Notes: a model not told the origin generated them from the sequence alone. A stretch of 64,000 nt of DNA from Chitinivibrionales bacterium (GCA_014728295.1 WJLW01000081.1:17295-81294); one strand, 5' to 3'; counted from the first letter of the stretch, positions 13,801 to 56,159 are shown. A program made the numbers and translations.

Positions 13801-15559
13801 TCAGCTCCAATAGTTTGTCGAGCTGTTTTGCGGTAAGAATCTGATTCCTTTTCAATGCATCGACCAGGGTAGTTATCTGGCGCGAATCGGAATCCGGATC
13901 TTTATTCAGAATGTCAATGATTTCATTGCGCTCGGCAAGTGTCAAGGGGATATTTTTGGCGATAATTGCTTCGAATTCTTCCCGCTTCTGCGCGATCAGC
14001 AGATCTTTGTCCTTGATTTTCTCAAACAAATCACGGTAGGCCGCACTGCTGCCTGCATTAAAAATTTTATACAATTCCACAATTTCGGTTAAACGCTTTT
14101 TGCGCAGTTCATCGCCGGGACTTGAGCCATACAGGTAAGCGTCGATGTCGCACAACTCCGTACTTTCCTGCTGTGACAGCGGCTCTGACTGTTTGACAAA
14201 ATCGGCCAGTTTCTGCTTGTGGGTGTCGTTCAGCCCGCGATTTTCATCGATGATCTTCTGGATTTTTTCAACCATGTCATAGTTCAACGGCTCGTTGCTC
14301 TCAATCGAAGCAACTAGTGATTCACGCTCCTGCGGTGTCAAAACGTCAATGATTTGTGCAAATTCGAGCAGCTTGGCCTTCTGGCCAATGGAGACTACAT
14401 CATTTTTCGTCACGGCATTGAGTGTTTCGGCCAGGTCGGGTACCACAAAAAAGTATGGGTCAGATTCGCTGATCAGCCGACGCCCCTTTTCGGTCAGCTC
14501 GGCACTGTGTCCCGATTCGTCAATCGAAAAGAAGAGCTGCTCGTCAATCTCATGCAGCTTGCGTTCGCGCAGGTACTCGGCTTCCACCGATTTCATTATT
14601 TTGCCGATACCGGGCTCTTTGAGCAGATTGAGCAATGGCGGATATTTCGGAGAGCCGCGCCGAACAGCCAGGAGCTTCAAACCGGCTTCAAAATGCTTCT
14701 CTTCGTCATCAAGCAATTTCTGAGCTTCGTCAAAGAGCTTTTTGATCAGATTTTTCTGCGCGGAGACGGCCTTTTCAACACGCGGGCGTAGCTCTTCATA
14801 TTCCTTGTTCGATTTGGTCACCGGACCCGATATAATCAGGGGCGTCCGGGCTTCATCTACCAGAATGTTGTCCACTTCGTCAATTATCGCATAATTCAAC
14901 TCGCGCTGTACGCACTGGTCGGCCGAAAAAGCCATATTGTCACGCAGGTAGTCAAAGCCGAATTCATTATTGGTACCATAGGTAATGTCGCAATTGTATG
15001 CTTCCCGCCGCTCTTCACTGCTGGGCTCGGTATTGTCCAGACAGCCCACGGTAAGGCCGAGAAAGCTGAATATTTTTCCCATCCACTCACTGTCGCGCCG
15101 GGCCAGATAGTCATTGACCGTAATGACATGCACGCCGCGTCCTTCAAGCGCGTTGAGATAGGCGGCCAGGGTTGCAACCTGGGTTTTTCCTTCACCGGTT
15201 TTCATTTCAGCTATTTTGCCCTGGTGCAAAACAACGCCGCCCATGATCTGCACATCAAAATGCGCCATAAAGGGGATCTCTTTTTTGGTATAGGGATCCT
15301 TGACCACACGCCCTTCACCCAACACCCGATGCGTCACCTCGCGCACCACAGAAAAAGCTTCGGGCAAAATATCATCAAGCGTCTCTCCCTGCGTCAATCG
15401 CTGCCGGAATTCAGCGGTTTTGTCCTGAAGCTGCTCATCGGAGAGAGTATGCATGGTCTCAGGGAAACCATTAACGCGATCAAGCACAGGATTCAAACCC
15501 TTTACATCACGATCCTGTTTTGAACCGAATATCCTGCCGACTATATTCATCAAGCTCAT
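10817..15559 (-). CDS. secA: Preprotein translocase ATPase SecA carrying a very large insertion in the preprotein-binding domain (1580 aa)
   Basis: Walker A MKTGEGKTQVATL, DEAD-like IIDEVDNILVDEARTPLIISG, conserved RDVDYVV.DG.I.IVDEFTGR...GRRYSEGLHQALEAKE, TNMAGRGTDI, and C-terminal zinc finger CPCGSGKKYKKCCG. About 565 extra residues lie between aa ~386 and ~951. Confidence 0.97.
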   Translation of the reverse strand: MSLMNIVGRIFGSKQDRDVKGLNPVLDRVNGFPETMHTLSDEQLQDKTAEFRQRLTQGETLDDILPEAFSVVREVTHRVLGEGRVVKDPYTKKEIPFMAHFDVQIMGGVVLHQGKIAEMKTGEGKTQVATLAAYLNALEGRGVHVITVNDYLARRDSEWMGKIFSFLGLTVGCLDNTEPSSEERREAYNCDITYGTNNEFGFDYLRDNMAFSADQCVQRELNYAIIDEVDNILVDEARTPLIISGPVTKSNKEYEELRPRVEKAVSAQKNLIKKLFDEAQKLLDDEEKHFEAGLKLLAVRRGSPKYPPLLNLLKEPGIGKIMKSVEAEYLRERKLHEIDEQLFFSIDESGHSAELTEKGRRLISESDPYFFVVPDLAETLNAVTKNDVVSIGQKAKLLEFAQIIDVLTPQERESLVASIESNEPLNYDMVEKIQKIIDENRGLNDTHKQKLADFVKQSEPLSQQESTELCDIDAYLYGSSPGDELRKKRLTEIVELYKIFNAGSSAAYRDLFEKIKDKDLLIAQKREEFEAIIAKNIPLTLAERNEIIDILNKDPDSDSRQITTLVDALKRNQILTAKQLDKLLELIQNNAFSSLPYMDKVNALDEDVRPYPEEKRTDLVEKVNAIPTLTQKQKDVVIKQVIKKCDNLSVIDIKKLEALVALLQPLSADEKQTITSIVQSQAKIIQKVQAEVEAKLAGNAKLSSDYYSGLNHIIEIDASLKEQDKVELKKIVSIYYDWSKEDKNEALECLKSYDSATLNEPKRLCELLRRETAGDQVALARIADAIASFADVSRNEKDELYRIVSETNLSADLRESLLSYFHKYDRLDKQDQEALVHIVSDSAKTLSSRERSQLTQRLKNNHRLAPSEAKQIKQALDAAKGIKAGAKEIATRALRHCPAFDSDERARLFEHVKSIQTVDVNQKNAMLERVGNNLPVGPEESQLLREDAQRQYTDKSERIHSASQLLRAYSMFERDVDYVVQDGQILIVDEFTGRILHGRRYSEGLHQALEAKERVRVAGENQTLATITFQNFFKMYRKIAGMTGTAATEAGEFHDIYKLDVVTIPTNRPLARTDYDDEIYKTQKEKVGAIADEISHMNEEGRPVLVGTTSIEKSEVLSKKLTQVGVQHSVLNAKQHSREAHIVAQAGRIGGVTIATNMAGRGTDIVLGGNFEAMVNQELAKEGIEADDLSREERRERYAKLFRELQEEQKKVKELGGLHIIGTERHEARRIDNQLRGRAGRQGDPGSSKFFLSLDDDLMRIFGSERLVGIMDRLGAEDGEAISHPLVSRSIGSAQKRVEGRNFDQRKHLKEYDDVMNLQRTEIYGLRQQILRGENIKHKIMEQISIFLEELVLRHTEDSKYAEQWHLKDLYVDLQAGFGIIYSIPEEQVSSKSIESLYDDIGAEIKKAYDEREQSRGELFMRSLERSIFLMVIDNLWKDHLYEMDHLKQGVQFRSYAQKNPLYEYQKEALNAFAELRSTIARQVTMNIFRYDDVVEQQDRMGLNRAQTEHDSYNVFAGPGSAPASDGSVPAAARKRRMITNRAGGGKPAPVRAPQQVGRNDPCPCGSGKKYKKCCGKTTA

Positions 15560-23158: not shown

Positions 23159-25120
23159 ATGAATGCCATAATCGCCATCTGGATATGTGCCGCCGGTCTC
23201 ATCGCCATCTACGCAGCGCTTTATTACCTGCGCTTTTGCAGGAGATCATGGAATGCGTATGCACTCCTGGGTATCAGGCTGGCACTCTTGATCGTGCTCA
23301 CCCTTGTTATTGTCAAGCCTTCCTGCACCATAAACCGTCTCAGCCACCCCGAAGCGATCATTCCTTTGCTTGTCGACGGCTCGCAGAGCATGCAAATGTT
23401 TGATCCCGATTCACTGACTGCATATATCACGCGTCTGCAAAACACGGCGAAAGAGCTACATCTGAAAGTACCGCTCATTCTCTTCGGCGATTCGTCGCGC
23501 GCCGTAGCGAGCATCGATGCCGAAGATTTTAATGACGAACACAGCAGCTTTCCCGGCCACTTTGCCAATCAACGGGTCGACCGGGCGCCACTCATGATCG
23601 TCCTTACCGACGGCAACTGGTCCAATACGGCTATCCCGTATGAGACAGTACGCAACAGGGAGATCCACTTTCTGGAGTTGGGCAGTATCTCGGTTTCCGA
23701 CCGCACGGCCATGCGGCTTCTTGACATACCAGACGCAACACCGCAGGACGAAGCAGCCTCGGCACTGATTGTGTTGAGCGGCAGCAGGTCCGCCGACGAC
23801 ACGCTGCTAGTGGTACATCGCCATGGGCGCCATGCCGAGCGGCTGCATTCGACAGCTCTGCGGGCAGGCAGATTCAACGATACACTCCGGATTCCACTCG
23901 CAACAGATTCGGTCGGGCGCCGGCTGCACAAGCTGCATGCGGTAGATGCTGCAGATTCCGTCATTGCAACAGCCTCGTTCGTTCACACGGTAATCCCGGA
24001 GAAATTTGGCATCGCCCTCTATTGCGCACAACCACGGCTAGACAAAAGATTTTTTGCGCTGGCGATTGACCGGGATTCGTCCTGGCGGCGCATAGATTCG
24101 GCAACCAAACCCGGTGAAGTAAATGCGCTGGTCTGCTTTGACTGGAATCGCACGGCGCGTCAAAAAGCCGCGTCCTTGGGCACGCCCGCCGTTGCGGCAT
24201 GCATCGGATGTTTGCCGGAAGCAGCAGGCAGTTCACCCCTGCAGGTGCGCCAAGTAACACTGATTGCGCATGATGAAACCCCGGATGTGATGCGCATCCA
24301 GGCCCGGCGCAGCATTCCCGCTCCGGATCTGATTCTGCAGGGATCCTGGCGTACGGATCCGCCCCTGTCGCTGCTCGACGCTTCCGTTGTCTATCGCTTT
24401 AAGGGCCGCACTCTTGCCGATACCGTTCCGATAGTGCTTGAACGTTCCGACATGCTCATTGTTGGAGCGGCGGGTATCTGGAAATGGGACTTTTTGCCTG
24501 CCGGCATAAACAGTGCAGAGCAGGAGACATTCGCCCGGGCACTGCTTGACATTATGAAAGCGAAGCTTATCCGCAAATCGGCCGGGAGCTTTCTGGTACA
24601 TCGCAGCAGCGGCTCTGCAGTTTCGCAAGCTCAGGGACTCTCGCTGCGCTTACTATTTCCGGCTACCTGGACGAAGATCGAAAAGGCAGAGGTTGCGATA
24701 AATCTGAATGACAGCGCACATAAGATCCATTTTGATTCAACCTGCTCGCTTGCACTCGGGGGGTTTTTTGAAAAGCAAGTCCATTTCCCGCCGTTGCCAC
24801 CGGGGCGCTACAGCCTTTCGGCTACGGCCCGTACAGGTGCTTTAACCCAACATTACACAGATGAGCTCATTGTCTTCGGACATAATCACGAATTGATGAT
24901 TACCGGGCAGAATCACTCGCTGCTCAATCGCATCAGCCACCCCCTCACCCCCTCAAAAGAAGCCTATGTTAAGTTACTTTCGAACAAAAAGCAGGTTTTA
25001 AGCTCTCCGCGAACCTCGGCAATGAACATATCGGTGCGGCAAACCTGGCATTTTCTACTGGCAATTCTGGTGCTTTTCGGCGCAGAGTGGTGGATACGAA
25101 AACGCCGCTCGCTCGATTAA
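23159..25120 (+). CDS. Membrane protein with N-terminal double-TM segment and vWA-like domain (BatA/BatB-like)
   Basis: Two N-terminal TM helices, a MIDAS-like DxSxS (VDGSQSM), LTDGNWS, and a C-terminal TM (WHFLLAILVLFGAEWWIRKR). Confidence 0.45.
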   Translation: MNAIIAIWICAAGLIAIYAALYYLRFCRRSWNAYALLGIRLALLIVLTLVIVKPSCTINRLSHPEAIIPLLVDGSQSMQMFDPDSLTAYITRLQNTAKELHLKVPLILFGDSSRAVASIDAEDFNDEHSSFPGHFANQRVDRAPLMIVLTDGNWSNTAIPYETVRNREIHFLELGSISVSDRTAMRLLDIPDATPQDEAASALIVLSGSRSADDTLLVVHRHGRHAERLHSTALRAGRFNDTLRIPLATDSVGRRLHKLHAVDAADSVIATASFVHTVIPEKFGIALYCAQPRLDKRFFALAIDRDSSWRRIDSATKPGEVNALVCFDWNRTARQKAASLGTPAVAACIGCLPEAAGSSPLQVRQVTLIAHDETPDVMRIQARRSIPAPDLILQGSWRTDPPLSLLDASVVYRFKGRTLADTVPIVLERSDMLIVGAAGIWKWDFLPAGINSAEQETFARALLDIMKAKLIRKSAGSFLVHRSSGSAVSQAQGLSLRLLFPATWTKIEKAEVAINLNDSAHKIHFDSTCSLALGGFFEKQVHFPPLPPGRYSLSATARTGALTQHYTDELIVFGHNHELMITGQNHSLLNRISHPLTPSKEAYVKLLSNKKQVLSSPRTSAMNISVRQTWHFLLAILVLFGAEWWIRKRRSLD

Positions 25121-29625: not shown

Positions 29626-32600
29626 ATGAAATGCAATGCAGGCCTGATGCATCTCCTCGTGCACGTATTCATTTTGCTGATGGTTTCGTTACCTGTTCTG
29701 GGTGATGAGAAATTTGACGAAATATACAATGCGGGAAAGTACGACAAAGCACTCCAATATGCGGATGAAAAGATCAAACCAGCCGATCGCGACCTTGAGA
29801 TATGGATAAAAATGGCCAAAGCGATTGAAGAGTCGCGCGGTTCAAAAGAGAAAATGCTCGTCTATTACAAAGAAGCACAAAAAAAGAACCCCAGTGATCC
29901 TCGCGTGGCCCTTGGCTTTGGGAAATATTACGCTGTATCCAAAAAATATAAGGAAGCGCTGGAGTACTTCCAGAAAAGCTACATACTCGACAACACCGCA
30001 CAAGCCGCAGAAGGTATGGCAATTTGCGCATACCATATCAAAGATTTCGAGAAGGCTCGTGATGCGGCAGAATCAGCCGTGCGCCTTGATCCGGACCTGT
30101 TTAATTCCAGAGCTATTCTTGCCAAGCTTTTTTTGGATGATAAACAATACGCATCCGCTGCAACTCACCTTGAATTCATTGTGAATCAAAAGCCCAGGGA
30201 ACTCAAATACTGGAAGCAGCTTGCCCTGTGCTATTCCCAAACCGGCAACACAGACAAACTTGCCCAAGCAGACAAAAAAATTATAGAGCTTGATGAGAAA
30301 AATATCCCCAGCCGAACCCGCTACGCAGCCTACACACTAACCAACCAAGACACCTCTGCTGCATTCAGCCTCTATAAAGAGTTGGCGATTTTATCGGAAA
30401 AAAATCCTGTTGTATTCAAGAATCTGTACGAAATAGCATTCGCAAAAGGCCAGAAAAAAGACGCCCTGCTTTATGGAAAAAATTATCTGATTCTAGATTC
30501 GACCAATGCAACGGCGAATCGGGATTACGGTAATCTCCTCTTTGAGGCAAAGCGATACGATGAGGCACTTACCTCATACCGTAAAGCGTTGCGCATTGAT
30601 CCGGACATCAAAGGTTTTTATAAAAATTACGCCCGAATACTCATCGAAAAAAAGCTTGAGAAAGAAGCGATTAGCATTATTAAAAAAGCGATTGACGCTG
30701 GTGAAGCCGACAAAGCACTCTATGTCGCATTGGGAAACATCTACCGCAATCAAAAAAACTGTGCGGCGGCCATTACGATGTATCAGAAAGCGCTTGAGCT
30801 TGACAGCAAGGATGTCGGGGTGCTTGGTTCATTAGGTGCATGCCAGGCTAAAACCGGCGATACGGATAATGCCATAATAACCTACGAGCAAGTGGTGCTC
30901 ATGGACGACAAGGCCGGGAAGGAGTATAAAATTCTGGGCGACCTGCATTTGAAAAAAGGCGAGCAGGCCGATGCCATGAAATCCTATTCCACCTATCTCA
31001 CCAAAACTCCCGACGATCAGAATGTTCTCAAAAAAGTGGGCCTGTATACTTTTGGTAAAAAAGATTACCGGACGACTATCAAGCATCTCAAAAAAGTCAA
31101 CAGAGAATCTCTTCAGGATGCAGACCTCCTGCTGGCCCTGGGGCAGTCATATTTTCATACCGGGGATTTTCAAAAATCCGCCGACGCCCTTGCCAAAGCC
31201 CGCACCAAAAGCCCCGCATCACGCGACTTGCCCGGGCTTTTAAAGACGCTTGCAGACAGTTATGTCAAGATTGGCCAGGAGCTCAAAGCGGCGCGGATCT
31301 ACGAAGCTTATACAAAACTCTCTTCGGTCAAGGATGCGGATGCATCATACATGAGCGCGTTTTTGAGGGAAAAAAGCGATAAAAAAGCAGCGCTCACCAT
31401 GTACCGGCAAAACACCAAGCTGTTTCCCAATGATCATCGAAACTACCTGCGTCTGGGCATGATTTATGCCCAAGACAAGGCGATGCTGTCAACGTCGGCT
31501 ACGATGCTGGCTCAAGCCGGAAAACTCAAAAAAGATGATCCGGTTATCTGGCACAAGCTTGCGAAAGTCAACCAGCGCCTGAGCCGCACCGACAGTGAGC
31601 TGTCCGCTTGGGAAAAGCTGGTTGCAATCGAGCCACAGCACCTCGAAGCAAATCGACGCATCGGTGCTCTCATGCTGGACAATGGCAAGACATCCGAAGC
31701 ATTGGCTGCGCTAGAGATCGTGTCGACACAGGCTCCCAAAGATGTTGAGATCATGCTGCTGCTGGCAGAAGGATATATTCAAACAAACCGCCCGGCCAAA
31801 GCGGCAGAGCTGATGGCAAAAGCCAAGACGTACAAAAAGGATGATGTCAAATTGCGAATTATGCTCATCGATGCTTATGAAGCCGCCGGGCAAAAAGACA
31901 AGGTTCAGGCCGAACGAAAAGAACTGGCGGAAATAGACAAAAAAACCGTAGCAAAGGACACGAAAAACAAGGCCGCCCTCGAACGGCTGGCCCACTATCG
32001 ATACGATACAGAATCCTTTGATGAAGCATATGATCATTATAAAGACCTTGCTGTCATGAAGCCCAAAGACACTTTGATAGTCAAGCGCCTGTATGAGATT
32101 TCGGTCCAGAAGAAAAACAAAACCGATGCATCTACCTGGCTGCGCAAATATCTTGCACTCAATCCCAACAACGCCAAGGCATATCGCAATCTCGGCGCCC
32201 TCCTTTACAGCCGCGAAGATAAAGACGGTGCGCTTGCAGCCTACCGCAAAGCACAAAAACTTGATGTCCGTCTCAAAGGGCTCTATCCCAAATATGCAGA
32301 GCTGGCTGTTGCGAAAGGACTGGATGATGAAGCAATCGCCGCATTAAAAGGCGCAATCACAACAGGCGAGGCCGAAGAGCAAACCTACATCACTCTGGGT
32401 AAGCTGTACCATAAGAAGAAGCAGTATAAAACAGCTTCGAACTATCTCAACAAGGCACTCGAAAAAAATCCGAAGAATGCGGATGTACTGACACTGTTGG
32501 CTGAATCTCAGTCAAAAAGCGGTGCGCTCAGTGACGCCGCCCTTACCTACCAGCAGGTAGTTATGATGAAGCCTGACGCTGCGGACGAATACAAGGCACT

Positions 32601-34053
32601 CGGTGACCTGCAGCTCAAGCAGAAGAAAGTCGACGACGCCATGAAGTCCTACCGAAGCTACCTGGAGAAAAAGCCGGCCGATCAGAAAATCGCCCGAAAA
32701 GTCGGCCTCTATGAATACGAGAAGAAAAGTTACCACAAAGCCATCGAATATCTCAAAAAAGTAAGCGACGTCTCGCAGCAGAATGTCGAATATCTGCTTG
32801 CACTGGGCAACTCGTATTATTCACTGCAAAAATACGCGGATGCTGCCCGGGCATATACGCAATTGCAGGCCAAAAAGGCAAAATCGGACATAGCTAAACA
32901 ATTTCTGAAAAAGCTGGGTAAATCCTACGAAAAGACCGGGGATGAACTTAAAGCCGCCAACGCATATGCAGCATATCTTCGCCTGGGATTAAAAGATGCG
33001 GATGCTGCCTACCTCAACGGCTATTTGCGAGAAAAAACCGATAAAGATCGAGCGGTTGAAATTTACACTCAGAATATAAAATCATATCCGCAAGACTCCC
33101 GCAACTTCCTCAGGCTGGGTCTGATTTATGCCGATAACAAAGCCATGCTTTCCAAATCGGCGAGCATGCTGAAAAAAGCATCCGCACTTGCCGATGACAA
33201 ACCGGATATCTGGCAAAAACTCGGTCAGGTTTACGGCAAACTGAACAAAGAAGACGAAGAACTCGACGCATATCAGAAACTCCTGACGTTTGCACCTCAG
33301 AATTTGCAGGCCAACAGACGCGTCGGTACCATCATGATGAAAAAGGGGCAAACCAAAGATGCCCTGGCCGCTCTGGAAATAGTGGCAACTATGGCGCCCA
33401 AAGATGTTGACATTATGCTCCTGCTGGCCGACGGGTATATGCGAACTAATCGATTGGAAAATGCTGTAAAATTGCTGGAAAAGGCTCAAAAAATTAAAAA
33501 GGATGATCCCGCACTCCTCGTCCAGCTTTATAAGCTCAATAAGAAGACCGGTAAAAAGCAAAAAGCCGAGGCATCCCTGAAGAAAGCAATCGAATTAACA
33601 AACAAGAATGAATACCGGACAATGTATGCACAGGACCTGATCGAGACCAAACGCTATGAGGATGCCATGCAGATAGCACAGGAGATTAAAAAGAACGATC
33701 CGGTAAATGTGGACGCGCTTATGCTCATTGCGGATATTCAGGGATTGCAAAAAAAGTATAACGAAGCGATCGAATCGTACAAAATGGTGTTGTACATCAA
33801 GGACGACTATGCGCCCGCGCTCTATGGAAGAGCGCAAATGTATCTCATGCAGTCCAAGTACGAGCGGGCAACTGACTATTTTCAAAAGGCGCTCAAATCC
33901 GATGCAAAACACGCAAAAGCGACGCTTGGACTTGCTCTGGTAGCTAAAGCACAAAACAAAAATGCCGACTACGCCAAGCTCGTAAAAAAGGCCTCAGCCC
34001 TGGATCCGAATGATGAAGAGATACTGAAGGAATTGAAAAAAGCTTCAAACTAA
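29626..34053 (+). CDS. Giant TPR-repeat protein (1475 aa) with N-terminal signal/anchor; paralog of 35468-39187
   Basis: ATG at 29626 is preceded by AGAAAGGAG. Hydrophobic N-terminus LMHLLVHVFILLMVSLPVLG, then continuous 34-aa TPR-like repeats. An internal ~555-aa tandem duplication is present. Confidence 0.85.
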   Translation: MKCNAGLMHLLVHVFILLMVSLPVLGDEKFDEIYNAGKYDKALQYADEKIKPADRDLEIWIKMAKAIEESRGSKEKMLVYYKEAQKKNPSDPRVALGFGKYYAVSKKYKEALEYFQKSYILDNTAQAAEGMAICAYHIKDFEKARDAAESAVRLDPDLFNSRAILAKLFLDDKQYASAATHLEFIVNQKPRELKYWKQLALCYSQTGNTDKLAQADKKIIELDEKNIPSRTRYAAYTLTNQDTSAAFSLYKELAILSEKNPVVFKNLYEIAFAKGQKKDALLYGKNYLILDSTNATANRDYGNLLFEAKRYDEALTSYRKALRIDPDIKGFYKNYARILIEKKLEKEAISIIKKAIDAGEADKALYVALGNIYRNQKNCAAAITMYQKALELDSKDVGVLGSLGACQAKTGDTDNAIITYEQVVLMDDKAGKEYKILGDLHLKKGEQADAMKSYSTYLTKTPDDQNVLKKVGLYTFGKKDYRTTIKHLKKVNRESLQDADLLLALGQSYFHTGDFQKSADALAKARTKSPASRDLPGLLKTLADSYVKIGQELKAARIYEAYTKLSSVKDADASYMSAFLREKSDKKAALTMYRQNTKLFPNDHRNYLRLGMIYAQDKAMLSTSATMLAQAGKLKKDDPVIWHKLAKVNQRLSRTDSELSAWEKLVAIEPQHLEANRRIGALMLDNGKTSEALAALEIVSTQAPKDVEIMLLLAEGYIQTNRPAKAAELMAKAKTYKKDDVKLRIMLIDAYEAAGQKDKVQAERKELAEIDKKTVAKDTKNKAALERLAHYRYDTESFDEAYDHYKDLAVMKPKDTLIVKRLYEISVQKKNKTDASTWLRKYLALNPNNAKAYRNLGALLYSREDKDGALAAYRKAQKLDVRLKGLYPKYAELAVAKGLDDEAIAALKGAITTGEAEEQTYITLGKLYHKKKQYKTASNYLNKALEKNPKNADVLTLLAESQSKSGALSDAALTYQQVVMMKPDAADEYKALGDLQLKQKKVDDAMKSYRSYLEKKPADQKIARKVGLYEYEKKSYHKAIEYLKKVSDVSQQNVEYLLALGNSYYSLQKYADAARAYTQLQAKKAKSDIAKQFLKKLGKSYEKTGDELKAANAYAAYLRLGLKDADAAYLNGYLREKTDKDRAVEIYTQNIKSYPQDSRNFLRLGLIYADNKAMLSKSASMLKKASALADDKPDIWQKLGQVYGKLNKEDEELDAYQKLLTFAPQNLQANRRVGTIMMKKGQTKDALAALEIVATMAPKDVDIMLLLADGYMRTNRLENAVKLLEKAQKIKKDDPALLVQLYKLNKKTGKKQKAEASLKKAIELTNKNEYRTMYAQDLIETKRYEDAMQIAQEIKKNDPVNVDALMLIADIQGLQKKYNEAIESYKMVLYIKDDYAPALYGRAQMYLMQSKYERATDYFQKALKSDAKHAKATLGLALVAKAQNKNADYAKLVKKASALDPNDEEILKELKKASN

Positions 34054-34081
34054 TACGATATTTGCAGCGCAATTCGTACAC

Positions 34082-34117
34082 AAAAAAAAGCCCGGATTTG
34101 TCAAGTCCCGGGCTTTA
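34082..34117. terminator. Bidirectional rho-independent terminator between convergent genes
   Basis: A8-GCCCGG-loop-CCGGGC-TTT hairpin, flanked by an A-run and a T-run. It lies between the TPR stop (34053) and the anti-sigma stop (34145). Confidence 0.7.
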
Positions 34118-34144
34118 TCAACCTGGTAAAAAGGTATTGCTTGC

Positions 34145-34705
34145 TTATTCTTGCTCTTCGCTGACTAATATGCTTTTCTCGCCCTTACCGTTGTATGGTC
34201 GAACTCGCTGTATTGCTGTACTGTCTTCCGCTTTTGACGAATCGTGAGGAAGGTCCCCTGCAAGCTGCATTTTATCATTAGCTTCTACTACCGGAGAGGT
34301 TGGTTGCTGCGGGATTGCATTGCGCTCCTTTGCAAGCCTGACAGCTTCCTGCCGGGTATCTTCAATCAGATAGACAAAGTAGCCGGCACCGGCAAATCCA
34401 ATAACCACCAGAAGTGCCGAAACGGCAACCCGCCTGAATAAGCCTGAAAACAAACCAAGCGAGGTTGTTTTTGCAGAGCTGGAGCAAACGCGTAAGATTT
34501 CGGCATCAGTTTGAGCTGAGGGCGAGGCTCCCAACACTTCGACGGTAAAGAGCGATTGTGATGATACCCGATAGTCGGCAAGGTGCTTCCTGCAATACGC
34601 GCATTTATCCAGATGGCGCTCGTAGGCCGCTTTCTGTTTATGAGTAAGTTCATCAGATGTATACAAAAGTCCGTCGGTTCCCCATTTAGTACACTCCATG
34701 GACAC
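34145..34705 (-). CDS. Anti-sigma factor (zf-HC2 type, single TM)
   Basis: H-x3-C-x2-C motif (HLDKCAYC), central TM (VAVSALLVVIGFAGAGYFVYLI). Overlaps the upstream ECF sigma gene by 20 nt. Confidence 0.7.
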   Translation of the reverse strand: MSMECTKWGTDGLLYTSDELTHKQKAAYERHLDKCAYCRKHLADYRVSSQSLFTVEVLGASPSAQTDAEILRVCSSSAKTTSLGLFSGLFRRVAVSALLVVIGFAGAGYFVYLIEDTRQEAVRLAKERNAIPQQPTSPVVEANDKMQLAGDLPHDSSKAEDSTAIQRVRPYNGKGEKSILVSEEQE

Positions 34706-35249
34706 CTCTCTTTTCTAGCTCTTTGCGAATGTTTTTCAAAGCTAACCTCATTCTTCCCAGAGCGGTATTGATAGGACAGTTCATTATTCTTGCAATATCT
34801 TTAAAAGGCACATCGCCAAGCTCTCGCAACAGAAAGACTTCCCGTTGAATGGGATCTAATACTTGCACCGCTTCATTAATCAGATCCCGCATCCTGCGAT
34901 TAGTAACCTCGCTTTCGGGCGAGTCAAACCTACTTCCAACCGAACCAATCGTATCCTGTTTGTGTTCGATTTCGACTTTTGCATGCCTGAAAAAATCGAT
35001 TGTTCGTTTGTGCGCTATGCCAAAGAGCCAGCTCAGAAAGCTTCGCTTTCGATCGAACTGGTCAAGATTCCTCATAGCAGCAATGAAAGTATCCTGCAAG
35101 AGGTCTTCGGCTTTTTCCATATCGGCCGTTAATCTGAGAAGAAATCCCAAGACCCGATCTTTGTATTTATCATAGAGCTGCGAAAATCCTTTTTGATCGC
35201 CTTTGGCCCAGAGCTCTACCAGGACCTTATCTTCTTCTCGTTCGTTCAT
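34686..35249 (-). CDS. ECF (RpoE-like) sigma-70 family factor
   Basis: Region 2 (DLLQDTFIAAMRNLDQFD, SFLSWLFGIAHKRTIDFFR) and region 4 (REVFLLRELGDVPFKDIARIMNCPINTALGRMRLAL). Confidence 0.88.
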   Translation of the reverse strand: MNEREEDKVLVELWAKGDQKGFSQLYDKYKDRVLGFLLRLTADMEKAEDLLQDTFIAAMRNLDQFDRKRSFLSWLFGIAHKRTIDFFRHAKVEIEHKQDTIGSVGSRFDSPESEVTNRRMRDLINEAVQVLDPIQREVFLLRELGDVPFKDIARIMNCPINTALGRMRLALKNIRKELEKRGVHGVY

Positions 35250-35400
35250 AAATAAATACGTTCAATTCCAGTTTTTATTGTTTAGGCCTTGCTTTTTTTC
35301 ATCCGAAACCAGGTTATCCGCCACGAAAGATTGTAACCAATTGAATACCGGAGCCTTAGTCATCCGCCCGGCCAGGCGGACGACTACAGGTAAATCTAAT

Positions 35401-35439
35401 AAAAAAGGACAGCTTGATTCAATATAATTCAAACTGTCC
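35401..35439 (-). terminator. Rho-independent terminator downstream of TPR gene 35468-39187
   Basis: On the minus strand, GGACAGTTTGA-11 nt loop-TCAAGCTGTCC (10 of 11 bp paired) followed by TTTTTT. Confidence 0.65.
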
Positions 35440-35467
35440 GCTTATTTTGGGCTGCAGTATCAATTGC

Positions 35468-38400
35468 TTAATTAAAGGCTTTATTGTATTCCTTTAGGAT
35501 TTCCTCATTATTCGGATCAAGCTCTTTGGCTTTTTTAAGGTTTTGTTCGTATTCTGCTTCGCGTTTCCAAAGCTTTTGCAGCTTAGCCAGACCCAGATAG
35601 GCAAGCCCGTAATTAGGATCCGTGCGCAATGCGCGCTTATAAAAGGTTTCGGCCCATTTGGGGCTTTTACCGAGTTGCTTGCCGTACTCACGAAAGAGTT
35701 CCGCTTTTTCGTACAGGGCTGGGACGTAGTTGTCCATTGCAATTATTTCATCATACACCCCAAGCGCTTCTTCGTATTTTTTCTGCGCCGTCCTGATCTT
35801 GCCCAGTAGCATAAGCACTTCGAGATCGGGATTCATAGCCATAATATTTTCTACTTCGTTTGCGGCGTCATCGTACTTGCGTTCACTGAAAAGCATCTTT
35901 GCATAAACCATGCGTGTTTCCAGATCATTCGGATCCAGTTTGAGAAGCGCTTCGACCTCCTTTTTGGCCTCCTTGTCTTTGCCGACCTGGGCGTATAAGC
36001 GGTAGAGATTTTTTCTTAATTCCGCAATGTACTTCTTTCCCTGCTCATTTTTCAGCGCCTGCTCTTTTGCTTTTTCGAGTACGGATATGGCCTCGTTGGG
36101 ACGCCGGGTACCTTCATAGCCCTTGGATAGCGCCAGCATGATTGAGATATCCTTGGGAGCAAGGGTGCTGGCTGTCTCAAGGTAGATCAGACCTTCTTTG
36201 AATTGGCGCTTCTTGGTAAGAATTATGCCAATCCGCTTGTTTGCTTCTGGATTTTGAGGCTCTTTTTTAACAAAGTTTTTGTAGGCTTTGAGCTCTTCAT
36301 CTGCTTTGCCGAGTTTTCCATACACTTCGGCCAGATTTTGCCAGATAACCGGAATAGAATCTGCCATGGCGGTAATTTTTTTGAATAGTGTAATGGATTT
36401 TGACAAAGTGCTTTTGTTTTTGGCATACATCAAACCAAGCTGTAGGTAGTTACGGTAATCCTTGGGGAAACGCGCAATATTTTTTTGGTATACTGTCTGT
36501 GCACCCGATGGATTGGACTCTTCCTGCAAAAAAGCAACCTTATACGAAGCTTCTGGATCAACAACGCCCCTGAGGCTCGTATAGGCCGCGTAAGTTTTAG
36601 CCGCGCTGACATTTTGCTTTTCAGCTTCGTAGCCTTTTGCCAGCATGAGAAGTATTTCCTTCAGTGTAGCAAGTTTAGGGTTGCGCTTTCGCAAGGCAAT
36701 CAGCAGAGGAATAGCTTTTTTATATTCCTTTGTCTCAAAGTAGGAAGTTGCCAGATTGAGCTGCACAAGAAAACCACTGGCTTCTTTGCCCTTGATCATC
36801 GAAAGATATTTAATAGCGTCCTTATACTCCTTCTTTGAAAAAGCCAGCATACCAACCTTTTTTGCGACAGCATTGTCGGCGCTTTTCTTGTCAAGGTATT
36901 TCTTGTAGGTTTTAATGGCCTGAGCCGTGTTCTTTTGCCGCTCGTATAATTTTCCCAGAGCCTTGAGTTCATCAACAGCTTTGGGTTTCATCATGATTAC
37001 CTGCTCATAGGTGATGATGGCTTCGTTAAGCTGATTCAGCGCGGCCTGACATTCACCCAGCGAAGTGAGTACATCCAGTTTTTGCGGGTCTAGCTTGAGG
37101 GCATTCTGATAGTTGTCAAGCGCCTGTTGGTACTGTTTCTTCTTCTGGTAAATCGTACCGAGGGTCGTGTAGTCTTCAACGGTGGCACTGCCCGATTTAA
37201 TCTTGCCTTTCAAAGCCCTGATGGCCTCGTCATGCTGGCCCTTGGCAATGACAATCTCTGCGTATCTTTGATAAAATCCGGATATTTTGGGATCAAGCTT
37301 GAGCGCCTGACGATAGGCAGCCAGAGCACCATCCAACTGCTTCTTCTCGTAAAGCAGGTCTCCCTTATCACGAAAGCCAACCGCGTCTTTCGGATTAAGC
37401 TTCAGATATTTATTAACATAGGTCAATGCTGAGGTTTTGTCGCCGGTTTTCATTGAAAGCTGGTAGAGATTCTGAAAAACCTCTTTGTTGCCGGGCGCCA
37501 GAGAGGCCAGTTGTTTATAAATGGCCAACGCCTCTTTCGGCTTGTTATTATCGATGAGGTAGGCGCCATAGCGCATACGAGCTTCTACATTCTTCGTGTC
37601 CAGGGAAATGATTTTTTTATCGGCATTGGCCAGTTTGTCTTTTTTGCCGGTTTTTTCATAGCACAAGGCAAGATCTTCCAAGTACGTCTTGTTTGAACTG
37701 TTCTTTTTTACCAGATTTTCAAGCTGTCCGGCAGCCGACTGATAGTTTTTTTCCTTCAGCAAAGCCTGGTAGAGGACCTCGCGTGCGTCAACAAGATTCC
37801 CGTCTGCATCGATAGCCGAACGAGCAGCATCTTTGGCCGTTTCCCACTGGTTCAACTGAGCCGATGCCAGGGCGATTCCCTCAAGCGCGGCTGCGCTCTT
37901 TTTCAGGCTGTTGGATTTTACGAATTGCTCTTTTGCTTTGGCGTATTGTTTCGATTTGAAATTGTACTGTCCCAGAATAAGATAGACATTGGGATCGTTC
38001 GGGCTGAGGCTGATCATTTTCTCATAGGTTTCTTTGGCCTTTTGTCCCTGCCCCGTCTTTTTGTACAAATCGGCCAGTCGAGCATAGGCTTCTACATTCT
38101 TGGTGTCCATGGAGATGGCTTTCTCCAGGCTGGAAACTGCCGATTTGTATTGCTTGAGCCCAACTTGCGCATCGGCCATCAGGAAATAAATGTCCTTAAC
38201 CGTCCGGGCTTTGGAATCGGCGTTGACAACAAATTTGAAATGACCTAAAGCCTGTTGGTATTCCTTGCCTTTGAGCTGTTGACGCCCAACAAAGGTACGG
38301 GCCAGCAGGGCTTCCTCTTGCTTTGATGCACCGAATTGTTTAATTGCGGTTTTGTAGCCGGCAACGGCTCCCGGTATATCACCAGACTTTTCTTTGGATA

Positions 38401-39187
38401 TGGCACGATAATATTGGTCTTCGGCAGTCGTTTTGTTCTTGGGAATTGCTTTGTCGTAAGCATCCGCCGCCTGCTTGTAATCACCTTTTTCATAATAGGC
38501 CCGCGCTAACGCAAGCTGCGCTTCGGAAAGGATCGGCTTTTTCTTGAGTGCTTCTTTGAGATACTGGATAGCGGCGGACGGGTCACCGGCTTCCGCGTTG
38601 GCCTTTCCCAGCATGAATGCAATCTCGCCGTCGGGTTTTTTATCGTATGATTTCTTGAGAAGTGGAATTGCCTTCTGGTATTCTTTTTGTTCGTAATAGA
38701 TGTTGCCGAGTGCTTTGTTTGCAACAGCATTTGTCGGATCGGATTGTATAACCTTTTCGAGCGCCTTCTTGGCCTCGCCAGGCTTTCCCTGCTTGATGCA
38801 GGCTTTTCCATACTCCCAACTGGCTTCGGCCGTAAAGTTGATATCCAGAGCTTTTTTGGCCATGGTTTCTGCGCTGGAATATTGCTCCAGTTTATTGTAA
38901 ATCCGTGCTGCGCCGAAGAAAGATCCGTAATCTTTGGGAAAGCTGCGGGAAGAGACCAGGTAACATGCAAGAGCCTTCTCTGTGAGATCGAGTTCTTCAT
39001 TGGCTTTGGCGACTTTGACCCATTCGTCGGCAGTACGCTTGGTTGGCGGCAAATTGCTGTCGGCATGCTCAATCGCTTCTTTGTATTTTTTATTCTTGAT
39101 CAGCTTGTCCAATGCCTCGTCGGCATAGATAAGCAGTGAAGCGGTTAAAACCATTGTAACGGAAAGGTGCAAAAGGTGCCTCGGCAT
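35468..39187 (-). CDS. Giant TPR-repeat protein (1239 aa) with N-terminal signal/anchor; paralog of 29626-34053
   Basis: Hydrophobic N-terminus (LLHLSVTMVLTASLLIYA), continuous TPR repeats, colinear with the other TPR giant, and a near-identical C-terminal tail (LDPNNEEILKEYNKAFN). Confidence 0.85.
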   Translation of the reverse strand: MPRHLLHLSVTMVLTASLLIYADEALDKLIKNKKYKEAIEHADSNLPPTKRTADEWVKVAKANEELDLTEKALACYLVSSRSFPKDYGSFFGAARIYNKLEQYSSAETMAKKALDINFTAEASWEYGKACIKQGKPGEAKKALEKVIQSDPTNAVANKALGNIYYEQKEYQKAIPLLKKSYDKKPDGEIAFMLGKANAEAGDPSAAIQYLKEALKKKPILSEAQLALARAYYEKGDYKQAADAYDKAIPKNKTTAEDQYYRAISKEKSGDIPGAVAGYKTAIKQFGASKQEEALLARTFVGRQQLKGKEYQQALGHFKFVVNADSKARTVKDIYFLMADAQVGLKQYKSAVSSLEKAISMDTKNVEAYARLADLYKKTGQGQKAKETYEKMISLSPNDPNVYLILGQYNFKSKQYAKAKEQFVKSNSLKKSAAALEGIALASAQLNQWETAKDAARSAIDADGNLVDAREVLYQALLKEKNYQSAAGQLENLVKKNSSNKTYLEDLALCYEKTGKKDKLANADKKIISLDTKNVEARMRYGAYLIDNNKPKEALAIYKQLASLAPGNKEVFQNLYQLSMKTGDKTSALTYVNKYLKLNPKDAVGFRDKGDLLYEKKQLDGALAAYRQALKLDPKISGFYQRYAEIVIAKGQHDEAIRALKGKIKSGSATVEDYTTLGTIYQKKKQYQQALDNYQNALKLDPQKLDVLTSLGECQAALNQLNEAIITYEQVIMMKPKAVDELKALGKLYERQKNTAQAIKTYKKYLDKKSADNAVAKKVGMLAFSKKEYKDAIKYLSMIKGKEASGFLVQLNLATSYFETKEYKKAIPLLIALRKRNPKLATLKEILLMLAKGYEAEKQNVSAAKTYAAYTSLRGVVDPEASYKVAFLQEESNPSGAQTVYQKNIARFPKDYRNYLQLGLMYAKNKSTLSKSITLFKKITAMADSIPVIWQNLAEVYGKLGKADEELKAYKNFVKKEPQNPEANKRIGIILTKKRQFKEGLIYLETASTLAPKDISIMLALSKGYEGTRRPNEAISVLEKAKEQALKNEQGKKYIAELRKNLYRLYAQVGKDKEAKKEVEALLKLDPNDLETRMVYAKMLFSERKYDDAANEVENIMAMNPDLEVLMLLGKIRTAQKKYEEALGVYDEIIAMDNYVPALYEKAELFREYGKQLGKSPKWAETFYKRALRTDPNYGLAYLGLAKLQKLWKREAEYEQNLKKAKELDPNNEEILKEYNKAFN

Positions 39188-39440
39188 GTCGGTAACCTCC
39201 TTCTGTACAAATAGTAAGCACGGTGATGACCAGGTTCAAAGGTAGGATAAACAAAATTAAACTTAAAAATGAATCTTGGATAGGACACTTTGCAAGCGGT
39301 CAAGCGCTAAGTAATTCATTTGACTATTGAATTCTTTAGTATGTACCGGCATAAACCGACCAAAGCTCCCCGCATGGCACTGTCCTGATTATTTTATATA
39401 GAGCTGATAATTATCACCACCCGGAAAGAAAAGAGGCACT

Positions 39441-53165: not shown

Positions 53166-54082
53166 AAGAATTACCCTATCAGAAACCTTTCCTGGCGCAT
53201 CTCCAGTTGGAGAAATCGCTGAGCGAAAATACGATTGCGTCATATCGCTTTGATCTGCAGCGACTCGTACAGTATTGCTCACAACAGGAAATCGCCGGAA
53301 TCAAGGACATTACTGCCGAATGCTTAACCGGCTATTTTCACGCACTGCATGACATCGGGTTTGCGCCTTCTTCAATTCAACGCACCTTGTCATCGCTGCG
53401 CGGCTATTTCGCTTTTGTCATAGCGGAAGGGCTGCTGCAGCACGATCCGGCGGAGCTGATCGACGGCCCGAAAGCCAACCGCTATCTTCCGTCGGTGCTG
53501 AGCGTTGAGGAGATCGAGGAACTCCTGGCGGCGATCGATACGAAAAAAAGGGGCGGTCTGCGCAACCGCGCAATGCTGGAGCTCCTGTACGCGTCCGGAC
53601 TGCGCGTATCCGAATTAAGGAGCCTGAGCCTTGAGAACATTATTGCCGCAGAGGGATTAATCCGTATTTTCGGCAAGGGAACCAAAGAACGACTGGCTCC
53701 CGTAGGCGGCGAGGCCCTGCAATGGGTTGCAACCTATTGCGAAAACGAGCGTCCCCGGTTCATGCGCCCGACAAGCGACAACACGTTGTTTCTCAACGTG
53801 CGCGGGGGGAAGCTCTCACGCATGGGAATCTGGAAAATCATTCGCCAATGCGCTGTGGATGCCGGCGTTCGCACTAAGATATCTCCGCATACGTTTCGCC
53901 ATTCCTTCGCAACGCATTTGCTGGAAGGTGGCGCCGACCTGCGCACGGTTCAGGAAATGCTGGGTCACGCCAATATCGTTACGACCGAAATTTATACGCA
54001 TATTGACAGAGAGTATCTCAAAGAAGTGCACCGCAGCTTTCACCCCCGATATCGCATACCACACCGACCGGCAAGGCCATGA
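53162..54082 (+). CDS. xerD: Tyrosine site-specific recombinase XerD/XerC
   Basis: N-terminal SAM-like EKSLSENTIASYRFDL, and catalytic region HTFRHSFATHLLEGGADLRTVQEMLGHANIVTTEIYTH. Its ATG overlaps the MBL stop (ATGA at 53162-53165). The listed longer ORF from 52958 overlaps the MBL gene. Confidence 0.85.
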   Translation: MKELPYQKPFLAHLQLEKSLSENTIASYRFDLQRLVQYCSQQEIAGIKDITAECLTGYFHALHDIGFAPSSIQRTLSSLRGYFAFVIAEGLLQHDPAELIDGPKANRYLPSVLSVEEIEELLAAIDTKKRGGLRNRAMLELLYASGLRVSELRSLSLENIIAAEGLIRIFGKGTKERLAPVGGEALQWVATYCENERPRFMRPTSDNTLFLNVRGGKLSRMGIWKIIRQCAVDAGVRTKISPHTFRHSFATHLLEGGADLRTVQEMLGHANIVTTEIYTHIDREYLKEVHRSFHPRYRIPHRPARP

Positions 54083-55647
54083 ACCGCGCATTCATTCAAA
54101 TACACTATCACGACCGATTAGGCGGTGTGGGAAAAGTTATTCGAAGCTATGCAGAATCATTTGAGAAGATCACACCAGCAGGCGATATTATGGCAAACTG
54201 CGTTATTTGCGCCTCTTCCCGCGCAGGCGTACATTCTTTTGAACCGGCGAAGACGGTGCATATGCCGTCTTGCGACTATCGCCGGTTTGTCGCCAAGAAG
54301 CAATTCACCCGCATGCGAGATGAACTGGCACATCAGCTGGCCGAATATGTAAAAAGGGCGGATACTGTTTCAACTCGCCTCGTTGTTGTGGCGCACAATA
54401 TTACGCTCGGCAAAAACAGTGCGCTGAGTTCAGCCTTCGCGCAACTGGCCCACACCTTCAGTCCTCGATCAACCGTGCACTTCTTTTCCGTGATTCATGA
54501 TCTCGCCGAAGAAGGCAGAGCCGACATGCTTGCCCAAATGCGCAAGGTGACGCAATTCGGCGAAACAATAGACTCGGTTTTCTATCCGGCATTGCCGAAT
54601 ATTACCTATGTTGTATTGAATAAACGTATTTACCATATTGTCAAGGCAGCCGGTTTACCGGTGCGTCTGCTTCCTAATCCCGTTGAGGTTCCCCGCCCTG
54701 AAAAAACTCTTTCGTCACAACAAAAAAACGAGCTGGTTGCAGCGATCGGCAAGCTTGCCGCCAATGACGGTGCGGCGTTTTATGCGAATCGACCGCTTTT
54801 TTTCTACCCTGTGCGCTGTATCAGCAGAAAAAACATCCCCGAAGCCATAATAATTGCCGCACTGGTGCTGAAGGCCAACCTGGTTACCGGCGGCCCGGGT
54901 ACCGCAGAAGGTGATATTGACATGCTGGCGCGGCTGCGGTCACTTGTTCGTGCATATCACCTGCCGGTCGTATTCGATGGAAATCGTGTTTGCAGCTTTC
55001 TGAGCGACACCGATCCGTTTCAGCTAATCTACTGGAATTGCGATGCGTGTATTTCCACAGCCGTAGCCGAAGGATTCGGCTACGCGCTCTACGAGCCCTG
55101 GCTTTTCAAAAAGCCGCTGATCGGCAGGCATGCAAAAGGATTTACGCCGGGCAAAACGATCCAAACAGATCATTTATATGCCGAGCTGAACATACCCGCC
55201 ACATGGATTGATCTTTCTGACCTGCAGAATACCTATCGCAAATCAATGCAACAATGCTATCCTCAAGAGGTGGCCCGTCCACTACTCGCCAAATCAAATC
55301 ATATCGATTTCGGCATGCTGGACATGGGGTCACAATTTACGGTACTTCAAAAGCTCCTCACTCAGCATGCAGCACTCGATCAAATACGAGTCTCACCCTG
55401 CGCAAACAATGCTCCAGATTTAAAGACTCGCCTCTATCCGCCCTCACTCACCATTGAACGCGTTTGCGCCAATCAATCCGCCATAGCCGATACGCTTGCC
55501 GGCCGGGCATTTCTGAGCCGGTTTAATAAATGCTATTTCCGCCCCGTTTCCCCTACACCTGTCACGCGTCAAGCATCTCAACATCTGCAAAAGCACTTTT
55601 GCTCGCCCGAAGAATTCCGGCTTTTACTGACACCATCTGCATCCTGA
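54079..55647 (+). CDS. Hypothetical protein, possibly a GT-B-fold (GT4-like) glycosyltransferase
   Basis: N-terminal IQIHYHDRLGGVGKVI, plus later RKNIPEAI and EGFGYALYEP elements reminiscent of GT4 enzymes. Its start overlaps the xerD stop (ATGA). Confidence 0.35.
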   Translation: MNRAFIQIHYHDRLGGVGKVIRSYAESFEKITPAGDIMANCVICASSRAGVHSFEPAKTVHMPSCDYRRFVAKKQFTRMRDELAHQLAEYVKRADTVSTRLVVVAHNITLGKNSALSSAFAQLAHTFSPRSTVHFFSVIHDLAEEGRADMLAQMRKVTQFGETIDSVFYPALPNITYVVLNKRIYHIVKAAGLPVRLLPNPVEVPRPEKTLSSQQKNELVAAIGKLAANDGAAFYANRPLFFYPVRCISRKNIPEAIIIAALVLKANLVTGGPGTAEGDIDMLARLRSLVRAYHLPVVFDGNRVCSFLSDTDPFQLIYWNCDACISTAVAEGFGYALYEPWLFKKPLIGRHAKGFTPGKTIQTDHLYAELNIPATWIDLSDLQNTYRKSMQQCYPQEVARPLLAKSNHIDFGMLDMGSQFTVLQKLLTQHAALDQIRVSPCANNAPDLKTRLYPPSLTIERVCANQSAIADTLAGRAFLSRFNKCYFRPVSPTPVTRQASQHLQKHFCSPEEFRLLLTPSAS

Positions 55648-55671
55648 GTGGTAAAAGATTATTTTTTTATC

Positions 55672-55700
55672 TTGACGAAAAATCTAAACTATTGGATAGT
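55672..55700 (+). promoter_or_regulatory. Putative sigma-70-type promoter of the HU/IHF gene
   Basis: TTGACG-17 nt-GATAGT, located 33 nt upstream of the GTG start. It overlaps a 7-bp inverted repeat. Confidence 0.4.
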
Positions 55701-55732
55701 TAGAAAGAAATCTAACTAACTGAGGAGGACTT

Positions 55733-56059: not shown

Positions 56060-56092
56060 CTACCTTCTGTATATTACTTTCTCCTATGTAAA

Positions 56093-56129
56093 GCGGTGCG
56101 AAAAAATAATTTCGCACCGCTGTTTTTTT
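56093..56129 (+). terminator. Rho-independent terminator after the HU/IHF gene
   Basis: Perfect 10-bp stem GCGGTGCGAA/TTCGCACCGC with an 8-nt loop, followed by TGTTTTTTT. Confidence 0.8.
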
Positions 56130-56130
56130 G

Positions 56131-56159
56131 TTGACACCTAGAATACCAAGCGATATAAT
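56131..56159 (+). promoter_or_regulatory. Consensus sigma-70 promoter (TTGACA-N17-TATAAT)
   Basis: Exact TTGACA at 56131-56136, a 17-nt spacer, and exact TATAAT at 56154-56159. It lies 45 nt upstream of the ATG at 56204. Confidence 0.7.

Follow-up and report, generated by a model that had tools for sequence, protein, structure and literature searches.

The genome of a Chitinivibrionales bacterium contains, within a 64,000-nucleotide (nt) stretch that we analysed as a whole (GCA_014728295.1, WJLW01000081.1:17295-81294; hereafter the window), a block at 29626-39187 in which two giant genes for tetratricopeptide repeat (TPR) proteins, TPR-A and TPR-B, enclose the genes of an extracytoplasmic function (ECF) sigma factor and its anti-sigma factor. 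Taken together, the evidence makes it rather probable that this block combines two separate things: two exported scaffold paralogs of a TPR family specific to the Chitinivibrionia, and an autonomous ECF unit, similar to SigW/RsiW of Bacillus subtilis, that has long been encoded next to the B-type TPR gene. An earlier note on this DNA had interpreted the block as one dedicated envelope module. From this proposal the recurrent linkage of TPR-B and the sigma pair survives (37/42 loci), but TPR-A turned out to be unlinked and the motif associated with the sigma gene was found at no TPR gene.

According to the reading that we favour, the TPR proteins would be exported by the Sec system, processed by signal peptidase I and then, soluble in the periplasm or associated with the envelope, keep other proteins together as scaffolds. 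Each would be transcribed from its own non-ECF promoter. The ECF unit, an ordinary stress-signalling unit, would consist of the sigma factor and a translationally coupled, single-pass HxxxCxxC anti-sigma factor that is presumably subject to regulated proteolysis, and its own SigW-like motif would provide autoregulation. TPR-B and the sigma pair would be old neighbours in a slowly rearranging housekeeping block. Thus, we are probably dealing with a family that is new and unnamed but of a well-known kind, its members being fairly ordinary envelope scaffolds. If this plain reading is right, the value lies mainly in annotation, namely in defining a family of giant, exported and clade-specific TPR proteins with three architectures generated by module duplication.

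Architecture and distribution of the TPR proteins

Both open reading frames (ORFs) are as the earlier note had described them. TPR-A (A-type; 29626-34053, plus strand) encodes 1,475 residues and starts with ATG 29626, the start also used in the database copy P0087, with a GGAG Shine-Dalgarno sequence ahead of it. TPR-B (B-type; 35468-39187, minus strand) encodes 1,239 residues. Inspected by eye, both N-termini show a positive n-region followed by a hydrophobic stretch (~16-20 residues) and, after it, small residues suited to cleavage. The predicted cleavage sites (between IYA and DEALDKLI in TPR-A, between VLG and DEKFDEIY in TPR-B) are located ahead of the conserved DE(T/K)FD end of the mature protein, and in the same inspection no lipobox cysteine was seen at position +1 of TPR-A, TPR-B or their orthologs. 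Pfam detected solely TPR-type families in both proteins (TPR_16, TPR_19, TPR_2 and others, E values 1e-50 to 1e-77), that is, 34-residue helix-turn-helix repeats matched by profile models, which places them in the TPR superfamily. The earlier description, an N-terminal signal followed by almost pure TPR, is therefore accurate.

An AlphaFold2 model of TPR-B (residues 41-1239, based on a 30-sequence alignment) is an all-helical solenoid without interruption, made up of 69 helices that each span 13-14 residues. Its predicted local distance difference test score is 87.8, and its predicted template modelling score is 0.37, a low value of the kind to be expected when a solenoid is elongated. No domain besides TPR and no non-TPR segment was found in this model. 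A profile search of the non-TPR segments and of the C-terminal tail had been suggested; for TPR-B there is no such segment, and its profile matched nothing but consensus TPR and OGT in the PDB. With the model as query, Foldseek listed TTC21B/IFT139, Ski3, Ctr9 and the TPR region of OGT as best matches (template modelling scores ~0.13-0.20, 13-19% identity). These are long uninterrupted TPR superhelices of multi-subunit complexes, and the likeness is generic, without an evolutionary or functional link.

As judged by BLASTP, TPR-A and TPR-B are paralogs far above chance (35% identity over 1,218 alignment columns, E 4e-166). The colinearity that had been claimed along with their paralogy holds only in part: TPR-A lacks the ~445-residue N-terminal TPR region of TPR-B and contains a tandem duplication, visible when the protein is compared with itself (residues 164-759 versus 712-1313, 43% identity, E 4e-151). 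This comparison and module mapping place module copy 1 at residues ~164-711 (30115-31758, plus strand) and copy 2 at residues ~712-1313 (31759-33564, plus strand). TPR-A is thus composed of a signal peptide, a short N-terminal cap (~140 residues), two tandem modules and a C-terminal region, whereas TPR-B comprises a signal peptide (1-22), the B-specific N-terminal TPR region (25-470), a single module (471-1065) and a C-terminal region (1066-1239).

The module is ~550-590 residues long and is present once in B-type proteins, twice in A-type proteins and in more copies in a third architecture class, the long type (1,780-2,060 residues), which joins the B N-terminal region to several module or half-module copies. 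All three classes have the signal peptide, a first helix pair of the form DE(T)FDKL..GKYKEAI.YAD and the C-terminal region in common. By these alignments, the family has diversified by tandem duplication of the module. One A-type gene from a related genome (L021:14014-16794; related loci are cited by L numbers throughout) encodes 926 residues with a single module and may represent an unduplicated A form. The nearly identical tails to which the earlier note had drawn attention are indeed alike, but the shared LDPN(D/N)EEILKE is a canonical TPR turn (LDPxN) plus capping helix that is kept family-wide. For this reason, we rejected the idea that the tail is a special sorting signal.

To which organisms is the family restricted? 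Searching 5.8 billion proteins for homologs, we obtained more than 100 clusters with scores of 667-1,613 bits, followed by a sharp fall to 227 bits or less, where the hits are generic TPR proteins. All named clusters in the upper range were assigned to Fibrobacterota, Chitinivibrionales or Chitinispirillaceae, or were metagenome-assembled genomes labelled 'Fibrobacter sp.'. The 74 distinct genome loci (from one genome per species) came from the same group as well, except for two with uninformative or discordant labels. On the basis of these scores, the giant all-TPR family appears to be confined to the class Chitinivibrionia of the Fibrobacterota. The author of the earlier note had not recognised the family, and it does in fact lack a name, only generic TPR matches being found beyond the Chitinivibrionia. 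Stretches of 7-10 kb with homology to the TPR proteins occur at L028 and L058-L062 and resemble tandemly arrayed long-type paralogs.

A B-type ortholog is present in the cultured species Chitinispirillum alkaliphilum (ACht6-1), at the same locus (L002), which comprises amidase, TPR-B, sigma and anti-sigma genes. Its annotation reads 'putative PEP-CTERM system TPR-repeat lipoprotein'. Such an annotation would make the TPR proteins scaffolds of exopolysaccharide (EPS) or exosortase systems, either PrsT of the PEP-CTERM/XrtA system or proteins of the AlgK, BcsC, PelB and PgaA type. PrsT is likewise long, exported and almost pure TPR, and its NCBIfam model (TIGR02917, cut-off 312.2 bits) gave 391 bits for TPR-A, which is above the cut-off, and 295.8 bits for TPR-B, which is below. 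In addition, the A-type ortholog of L003 is encoded among glycosyltransferases and a polysaccharide deacetylase, and the long-type ortholog of L005 4 kb from Wza/Wzc-like genes. However, each TIGR02917 score adds up 5-7 partial stretches of a protein with 30-plus repeats, and PrsT is a lipoprotein of ~900 residues from an exosortase locus, whereas TPR-A and TPR-B have 1,239-1,475 residues and, by eye, no lipobox. Neither an exosortase nor a synthase or porin domain was detected among the window ORFs scanned with Pfam, exosortase and EPS genes were also absent from the called genes around orthologs, and the gene contexts of the A-type and long-type are not conserved. We consider an EPS or exosortase function very improbable. 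A conserved Omp85/YceG context of long-type TPR genes was rejected too, as it holds in one close relative only.

Other curated models were exceeded in the same manner. PilW (TIGR02521), MamA (NF040959), SycD/LcrH (TIGR02552) and SctY (NF052415) passed their cut-offs only by summing 3-12 repeat stretches; these proteins have 100-250 residues and 3-6 TPRs, TPR-A and TPR-B being 5-10 times longer, and no pilus, magnetosome or type III secretion genes were found nearby among the Pfam-scanned window ORFs. All four candidates were dismissed. The cut-off of a C39 peptidase model was likewise exceeded via repeat summation. Passing curated equivalog cut-offs by the mere sum of repeats leads to misannotation of giant TPR proteins, and the C. 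alkaliphilum ortholog already bears a PEP-CTERM name.

Within the phylum, FSU_2397 and FSU_2398 of Fibrobacter succinogenes come closest as functional analogues. These all-TPR proteins with signal peptides are upregulated on cellulose, co-purify with cellulases, fibro-slime proteins and OmpA, and were proposed as scaffolds of an envelope complex (PMC6851124). By analogy, TPR-A and TPR-B might be cell-surface or outer-membrane-vesicle scaffolds of a chitin-degrading machinery. The phylum and the lifestyle match the F. succinogenes case, given that the Chitinivibrionia are chitin specialists (PMC4814513), and the tandem arrays of TPR paralogs in some relatives (L058-L062) would also fit. But any similarity is one of analogy, as no F. 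succinogenes protein came up among the family members, below which the scores fall steeply, and FSU_2397 and FSU_2398 were not detected as homologs above the level of generic TPR matches. The F. succinogenes genes are situated beside OmpA, whereas here an ECF pair and housekeeping genes are the neighbours, and no glycoside hydrolase, OmpA or fibro-slime gene adjoins TPR-A or TPR-B in the window. Moreover, the TPR proteins are devoid of an outer-membrane anchor and of a type IX secretion system C-terminal domain. A role in chitin degradation is improbable in our view.

The ECF unit and the transcription of the block

That an ECF sigma factor and an anti-sigma factor are encoded between the TPR genes was borne out by Pfam and by the HxxxCxxC motif, respectively. 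The sigma gene (34686-35249, minus strand) encodes 187 residues with Sigma70_r2 (64.7 bits) and Sigma70_r4_2 (40.6 bits), and TIGR02937 (sigma70-ECF) scored 88.9 against a cut-off of 42.9. A protein of ~190 residues that contains only the sigma-2 and sigma-4 regions corresponds to ECF group IV. Its closest solved relative is B. subtilis SigW (5wuq, E 3.5e-20).

The anti-sigma gene (34145-34705, minus strand) likely starts at ATG 34699 (MEC...) and overlaps the sigma gene by 14 nt. Its product contains HLDKCAYC, which conforms to HxxxCxxC, one hydrophobic transmembrane span (~residues 93-114) and a predicted periplasmic tail of ~70 residues; H29, C33 and C36 do not vary among 20 orthologs. An HxxxCxxC domain, the gene overlap with sigma and a subsequent transmembrane helix are the characteristics of class I zinc-associated anti-sigma (ZAS) factors. 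The designation zf-HC2 in the earlier note is supported by motif and membrane span, but the Pfam zf-HC2 match itself stays below its cut-off (18.5 versus 22.2 bits). A profile search with the 20 orthologs retrieved 24 proteins, all from within the clade, and hence no distant relatives; the profile search against the PDB gave one insignificant hit, and no known domain was found to cover the tail. The tail is variable, yet in most orthologs (from L002-L079) it ends in (F/Y)SxxRGNLxxxGVxPVDL(K). In the window protein this motif is degenerate (RVRPYNGKGEKSILVSEEQE, encoded at 34145-34210).

A bipartite motif, [A]CAATA-N15/16-CGTA[A/T/G]T, precedes the sigma gene and was invariant in 46 of 46 loci. 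In the window it reads AACAATA-N15-CGTATT (35254-35282, minus strand) and ends 5 nt before the sigma ATG. CGTA is the -10 element that is selectively recognised by B. subtilis SigW (PMC5758882). Because SigW is also the nearest solved relative of the sigma factor, we interpret the motif as SigW-like, and it probably constitutes an autoregulatory ECF promoter. In its layout it conforms to SigW-type autoregulated promoters, which have a -35 (..AAC) and a -10 (CGTx) element with a ~16-nt spacer ahead of the sigma gene. The ECF unit and the SigW/RsiW system have further features in common: overlapping genes, an HxxxCxxC anti-sigma factor with one transmembrane span and an extracytoplasmic tail, and an upstream motif that ends in CGTA (TGAAAC-N16-CGTA for the autoregulated SigW/RsiW promoter). 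They differ in the upstream half-site, which is ACAATA here instead of GAAAC. Furthermore, sequence identity is low, the window pair reaches no NCBIfam equivalog cut-off, and the anti-sigma tail is short and variable with a clade-specific end motif.

From the 46 sigma-gene sites we built a position matrix and scanned the window and 80 related loci (2.4 Mb, both strands counted). All hits that scored above 19 adjoin sigma genes. The site at 35282-35254 is the sole good hit in the window (23.7), and the next-best one (15.6) is situated inside the TPR-B coding sequence. Neither TPR-A nor TPR-B nor any other TPR gene of the window and the 80 loci, long-type genes included, is preceded by the motif. 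This distribution bears on the regulatory part of the module proposed in the earlier note, according to which the ECF sigma factor drives one or both TPR genes as a dedicated regulon. Conserved neighbours of ECF pairs are often their targets, and it is proximity that speaks for such a regulon here. However, the motif occurs once in the window and is restricted to sigma genes elsewhere, a different, sigma-70-like motif precedes TPR-B, and the A-type orthologs are not linked to the pair, all of which renders it most unlikely that this sigma factor controls the TPR genes. The motif itself is a clean, testable handle for finding regulon members in a phylum that has been little studied.

The motif upstream of TPR-B, TTGCA-N19-TTCATTTT (39266-39295, minus strand), is located 79 nt upstream of the TPR-B ATG. 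Among 42 orthologous upstream regions, ~21-24 fit the pattern TTGCA-N17-19-(A)CCATTTT, a few of them loosely, with the motif 55-205 nt before the strong GGAGG Shine-Dalgarno sequence of TPR-B. It looks like a housekeeping promoter.

Beyond the TPR-B stop codon there are two hairpins (35359-35439, minus strand). The first (~35401-35439) consists of an 11-bp stem followed by U6 (-16.5 kcal/mol, z -4.5) and agrees with the terminator that had been postulated between TPR-B and the sigma pair, while the second (~35359-35386) has a GC-rich 13-bp stem without U tract. Another hairpin, with a GCCCGG...CCGGGC stem (34087-34117), separates the convergent ends of TPR-A and the anti-sigma gene. It is followed by U8 on the minus strand and by UUUAUC on the plus strand, and is predicted to be an intrinsic terminator that is strong for the anti-sigma transcript and weak for TPR-A. 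The bidirectional terminator of the earlier note is thus sound for the minus strand but only weak for the plus strand. None of these hairpins was flagged by a generic terminator scanner. In the related genomes, convincing terminators follow TPR-B in roughly 1/4-1/3 of the loci, and loci with TPR-B/sigma gaps of 67-95 nt have no terminator. Given such short, terminator-free gaps, co-transcription of TPR-B and sigma is possible in some lineages.

Gene neighbourhood in related genomes

The sigma, anti-sigma and flanking genes were located by tblastn in the window and the 80 loci, and frequencies were counted over B-type loci that are full-length and sufficiently flanked; two long-type loci that had passed the filter were left out. 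Synteny of the order TPR, ECF sigma, anti-sigma, TPR had been put forward as a test of the module. Its B-type side is conserved: the sigma gene follows TPR-B within 1.2 kb on the same strand in 37/42 loci (88%), and the anti-sigma gene directly follows sigma in 38/38. The TPR-A side is not. Neighbours of the trio are frequent as well, namely an Amidase_2 gene of the AmpD kind immediately upstream of TPR-B and on its strand (40/47 loci, 85%), a low-molecular-weight phosphotyrosine phosphatase (LMW-PTP; 33/41, 80%), a short-chain dehydrogenase/reductase (SDR; 26/43), PfkB after the anti-sigma gene (24/33, 73%), leuS (24/34) and tyrS (16/37). That is, the TPR-B/sigma adjacency is embedded in a larger conserved block of housekeeping genes (tyrS, LMW-PTP, amidase, PfkB and leuS) and is only moderately more stable than the position of the unrelated neighbours amidase, LMW-PTP and PfkB. 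Because TPR-B, sigma and anti-sigma are part of a generally conserved block, their adjacency on its own says little about a shared function. In the window, the amidase gene is missing altogether and the gap between TPR-B and the SDR gene measures 254 nt (39188-39440).

The A-type gene behaves differently. Its orthologs occur in unrelated contexts, such as among the glycosyltransferases of L003 or among PAS kinases (L004). In the closest relatives it is found ~5 kb away on the same strand, after PfkB-leuS-Ham1 (L001, 47% identity; L007), and the single-module A-type gene of L021 is positioned ~3 kb downstream of the anti-sigma gene in a different context. The convergent TPR-A/anti-sigma arrangement was found in no other sampled genome. 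Since TPR-A is located elsewhere in other genomes, the convergent two-TPR arrangement is lineage-specific. Ham1, leuS and PfkB are all present in the window, where TPR-A sits between the anti-sigma gene and PfkB, and the gene order indicates that TPR-A moved and was inverted into the anti-sigma/PfkB gap in this genome only. On the plain reading, then, the neighbourhood of TPR-B and the ECF pair is real and conserved, whereas that of TPR-A is accidental.

Five loci encode TPR-B without the sigma pair. In four of them (L027, L028, L049 and L053) TPR-B resides in a new context, while in L045 the upstream neighbours are retained and the pair is gone. In the two termite-gut Chitinispirillales among them, TPR-B is followed by a NUDIX hydrolase gene (L049:12477-12995; L053:9676-10194) and accD. 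A NUDIX gene apparently also interrupts the TPR-B/sigma interval at L008, L012, L013, L041, L046, L073 and L079, where gaps of 520-790 nt have a coding-looking end. Conserved columns were compared for three of the sigma-less copies (L027, L053 and L045, not L028 and L049). The copies of L027 and L053 deviate at these columns no more than others do, and that of L045 falls within the range of the sigma-linked copies.

TPR-B as a candidate third component, and other genes of the window

Several observations weigh against our reading of the TPR proteins as scaffolds beside an autonomous ECF unit. The scaffold role is what the modelled fold suggests by default. In addition, the promoter reading of the sigma motif faces a geometric problem that also sets it apart from SigW/RsiW: the only usable in-frame sigma ATG is located -2 to +5 nt after CGTAnT (+5 in the window, +1 or +2 in ~24 loci; window and 45 related loci). 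With a SigW-type start expected ~6-8 nt past the -10 element, a leaderless start would be possible in the window and ~15 loci and misfits in ~24. A start codon further downstream is ruled out, because the N-terminal peptide of sigma after this ATG is conserved. Either the sigma transcript would be leaderless with an unusually short distance between -10 element and start, or the motif would have another function. We also considered ACAATA as a sigma-70 -10 element with a short leader and rejected it, there being no conserved -35 element or Shine-Dalgarno sequence. The autonomy of the ECF unit is challenged by the fact that the TPR-B/sigma adjacency is, apart from the sigma/anti-sigma pair itself, the stablest of the block (88%), and by two rearranged contexts with differing flanks (L021 and L055) in which TPR-B, sigma and anti-sigma stayed intact, which hints at more than inertia. 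Finally, the conserved peptide at the end of the anti-sigma tail might be bound by a TPR groove or, alternatively, by a protease.

TPR grooves typically bind extended peptides. One may thus imagine three-component signalling, in which periplasmic TPR-B binds the anti-sigma tail (RGNLxxxGVxPVDL) and, as a co-anti-sigma factor or sensor, gates proteolysis much as RseB does on RseA. In the RseB/RseA/sigma-E system of Escherichia coli, the gene of a periplasmic protein is also found by the sigma/anti-sigma pair, and TPR-B could similarly bind the periplasmic part of its neighbour. But RseB is not a TPR protein and is encoded downstream in the same operon, whereas TPR-B is encoded upstream, with its own putative promoter and often a terminator. 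The same-strand adjacency of the three genes in 37/42 loci, its persistence in L021 and L055, the short linear motif that terminates an otherwise variable tail and the terminator-free gaps that would allow co-transcription in some loci all argue for such a tie. The counterevidence comes from the five loci that have TPR-B and no pair, with two of the three copies examined being equally conserved, from an adjacency little more stable than that with unrelated neighbours, and from the window itself, in which the tail motif is degenerate and TPR-B is intact. Also, the genes appear to have separate promoters and are often separated by a terminator or an inserted NUDIX gene.

Weighing both sides, we hold three-component signalling, and with it a functional tie between TPR-B and the anti-sigma factor, to be possible but rather unlikely. 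Unlikely as well, in our opinion, is its most specific form, a Chitinivibrionia-specific mechanism in which the 135-kDa TPR-B would capture the C-terminal peptide of the anti-sigma factor and thereby make sigma release depend on the state of a large envelope complex. If TPR-B were indeed a third periplasmic component, it would represent a new class of ECF input module and be of wider interest. In the ECF classification literature, TPR is mentioned only for the C-terminal extension of the ECF42 sigma factors and for an ECF267 FecR-like protein, and no gene arrangement resembling the present one is described there. The reading that we prefer is still that of envelope scaffolds encoded beside an autonomous SigW/RsiW-like unit.

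Two further observations concern other parts of the window. Large ORFs of 653, 522 and 481 residues without Pfam match are located at 23159-25120 (plus strand) and 54079-57649 (plus strand). SecA (10817-15559, minus strand) comprises 1,580 residues and is far longer than usual; its SecA_DEAD match extends over residues 9-1053, and the protein harbours a ~700-residue insertion with a DUF3106-like stretch.

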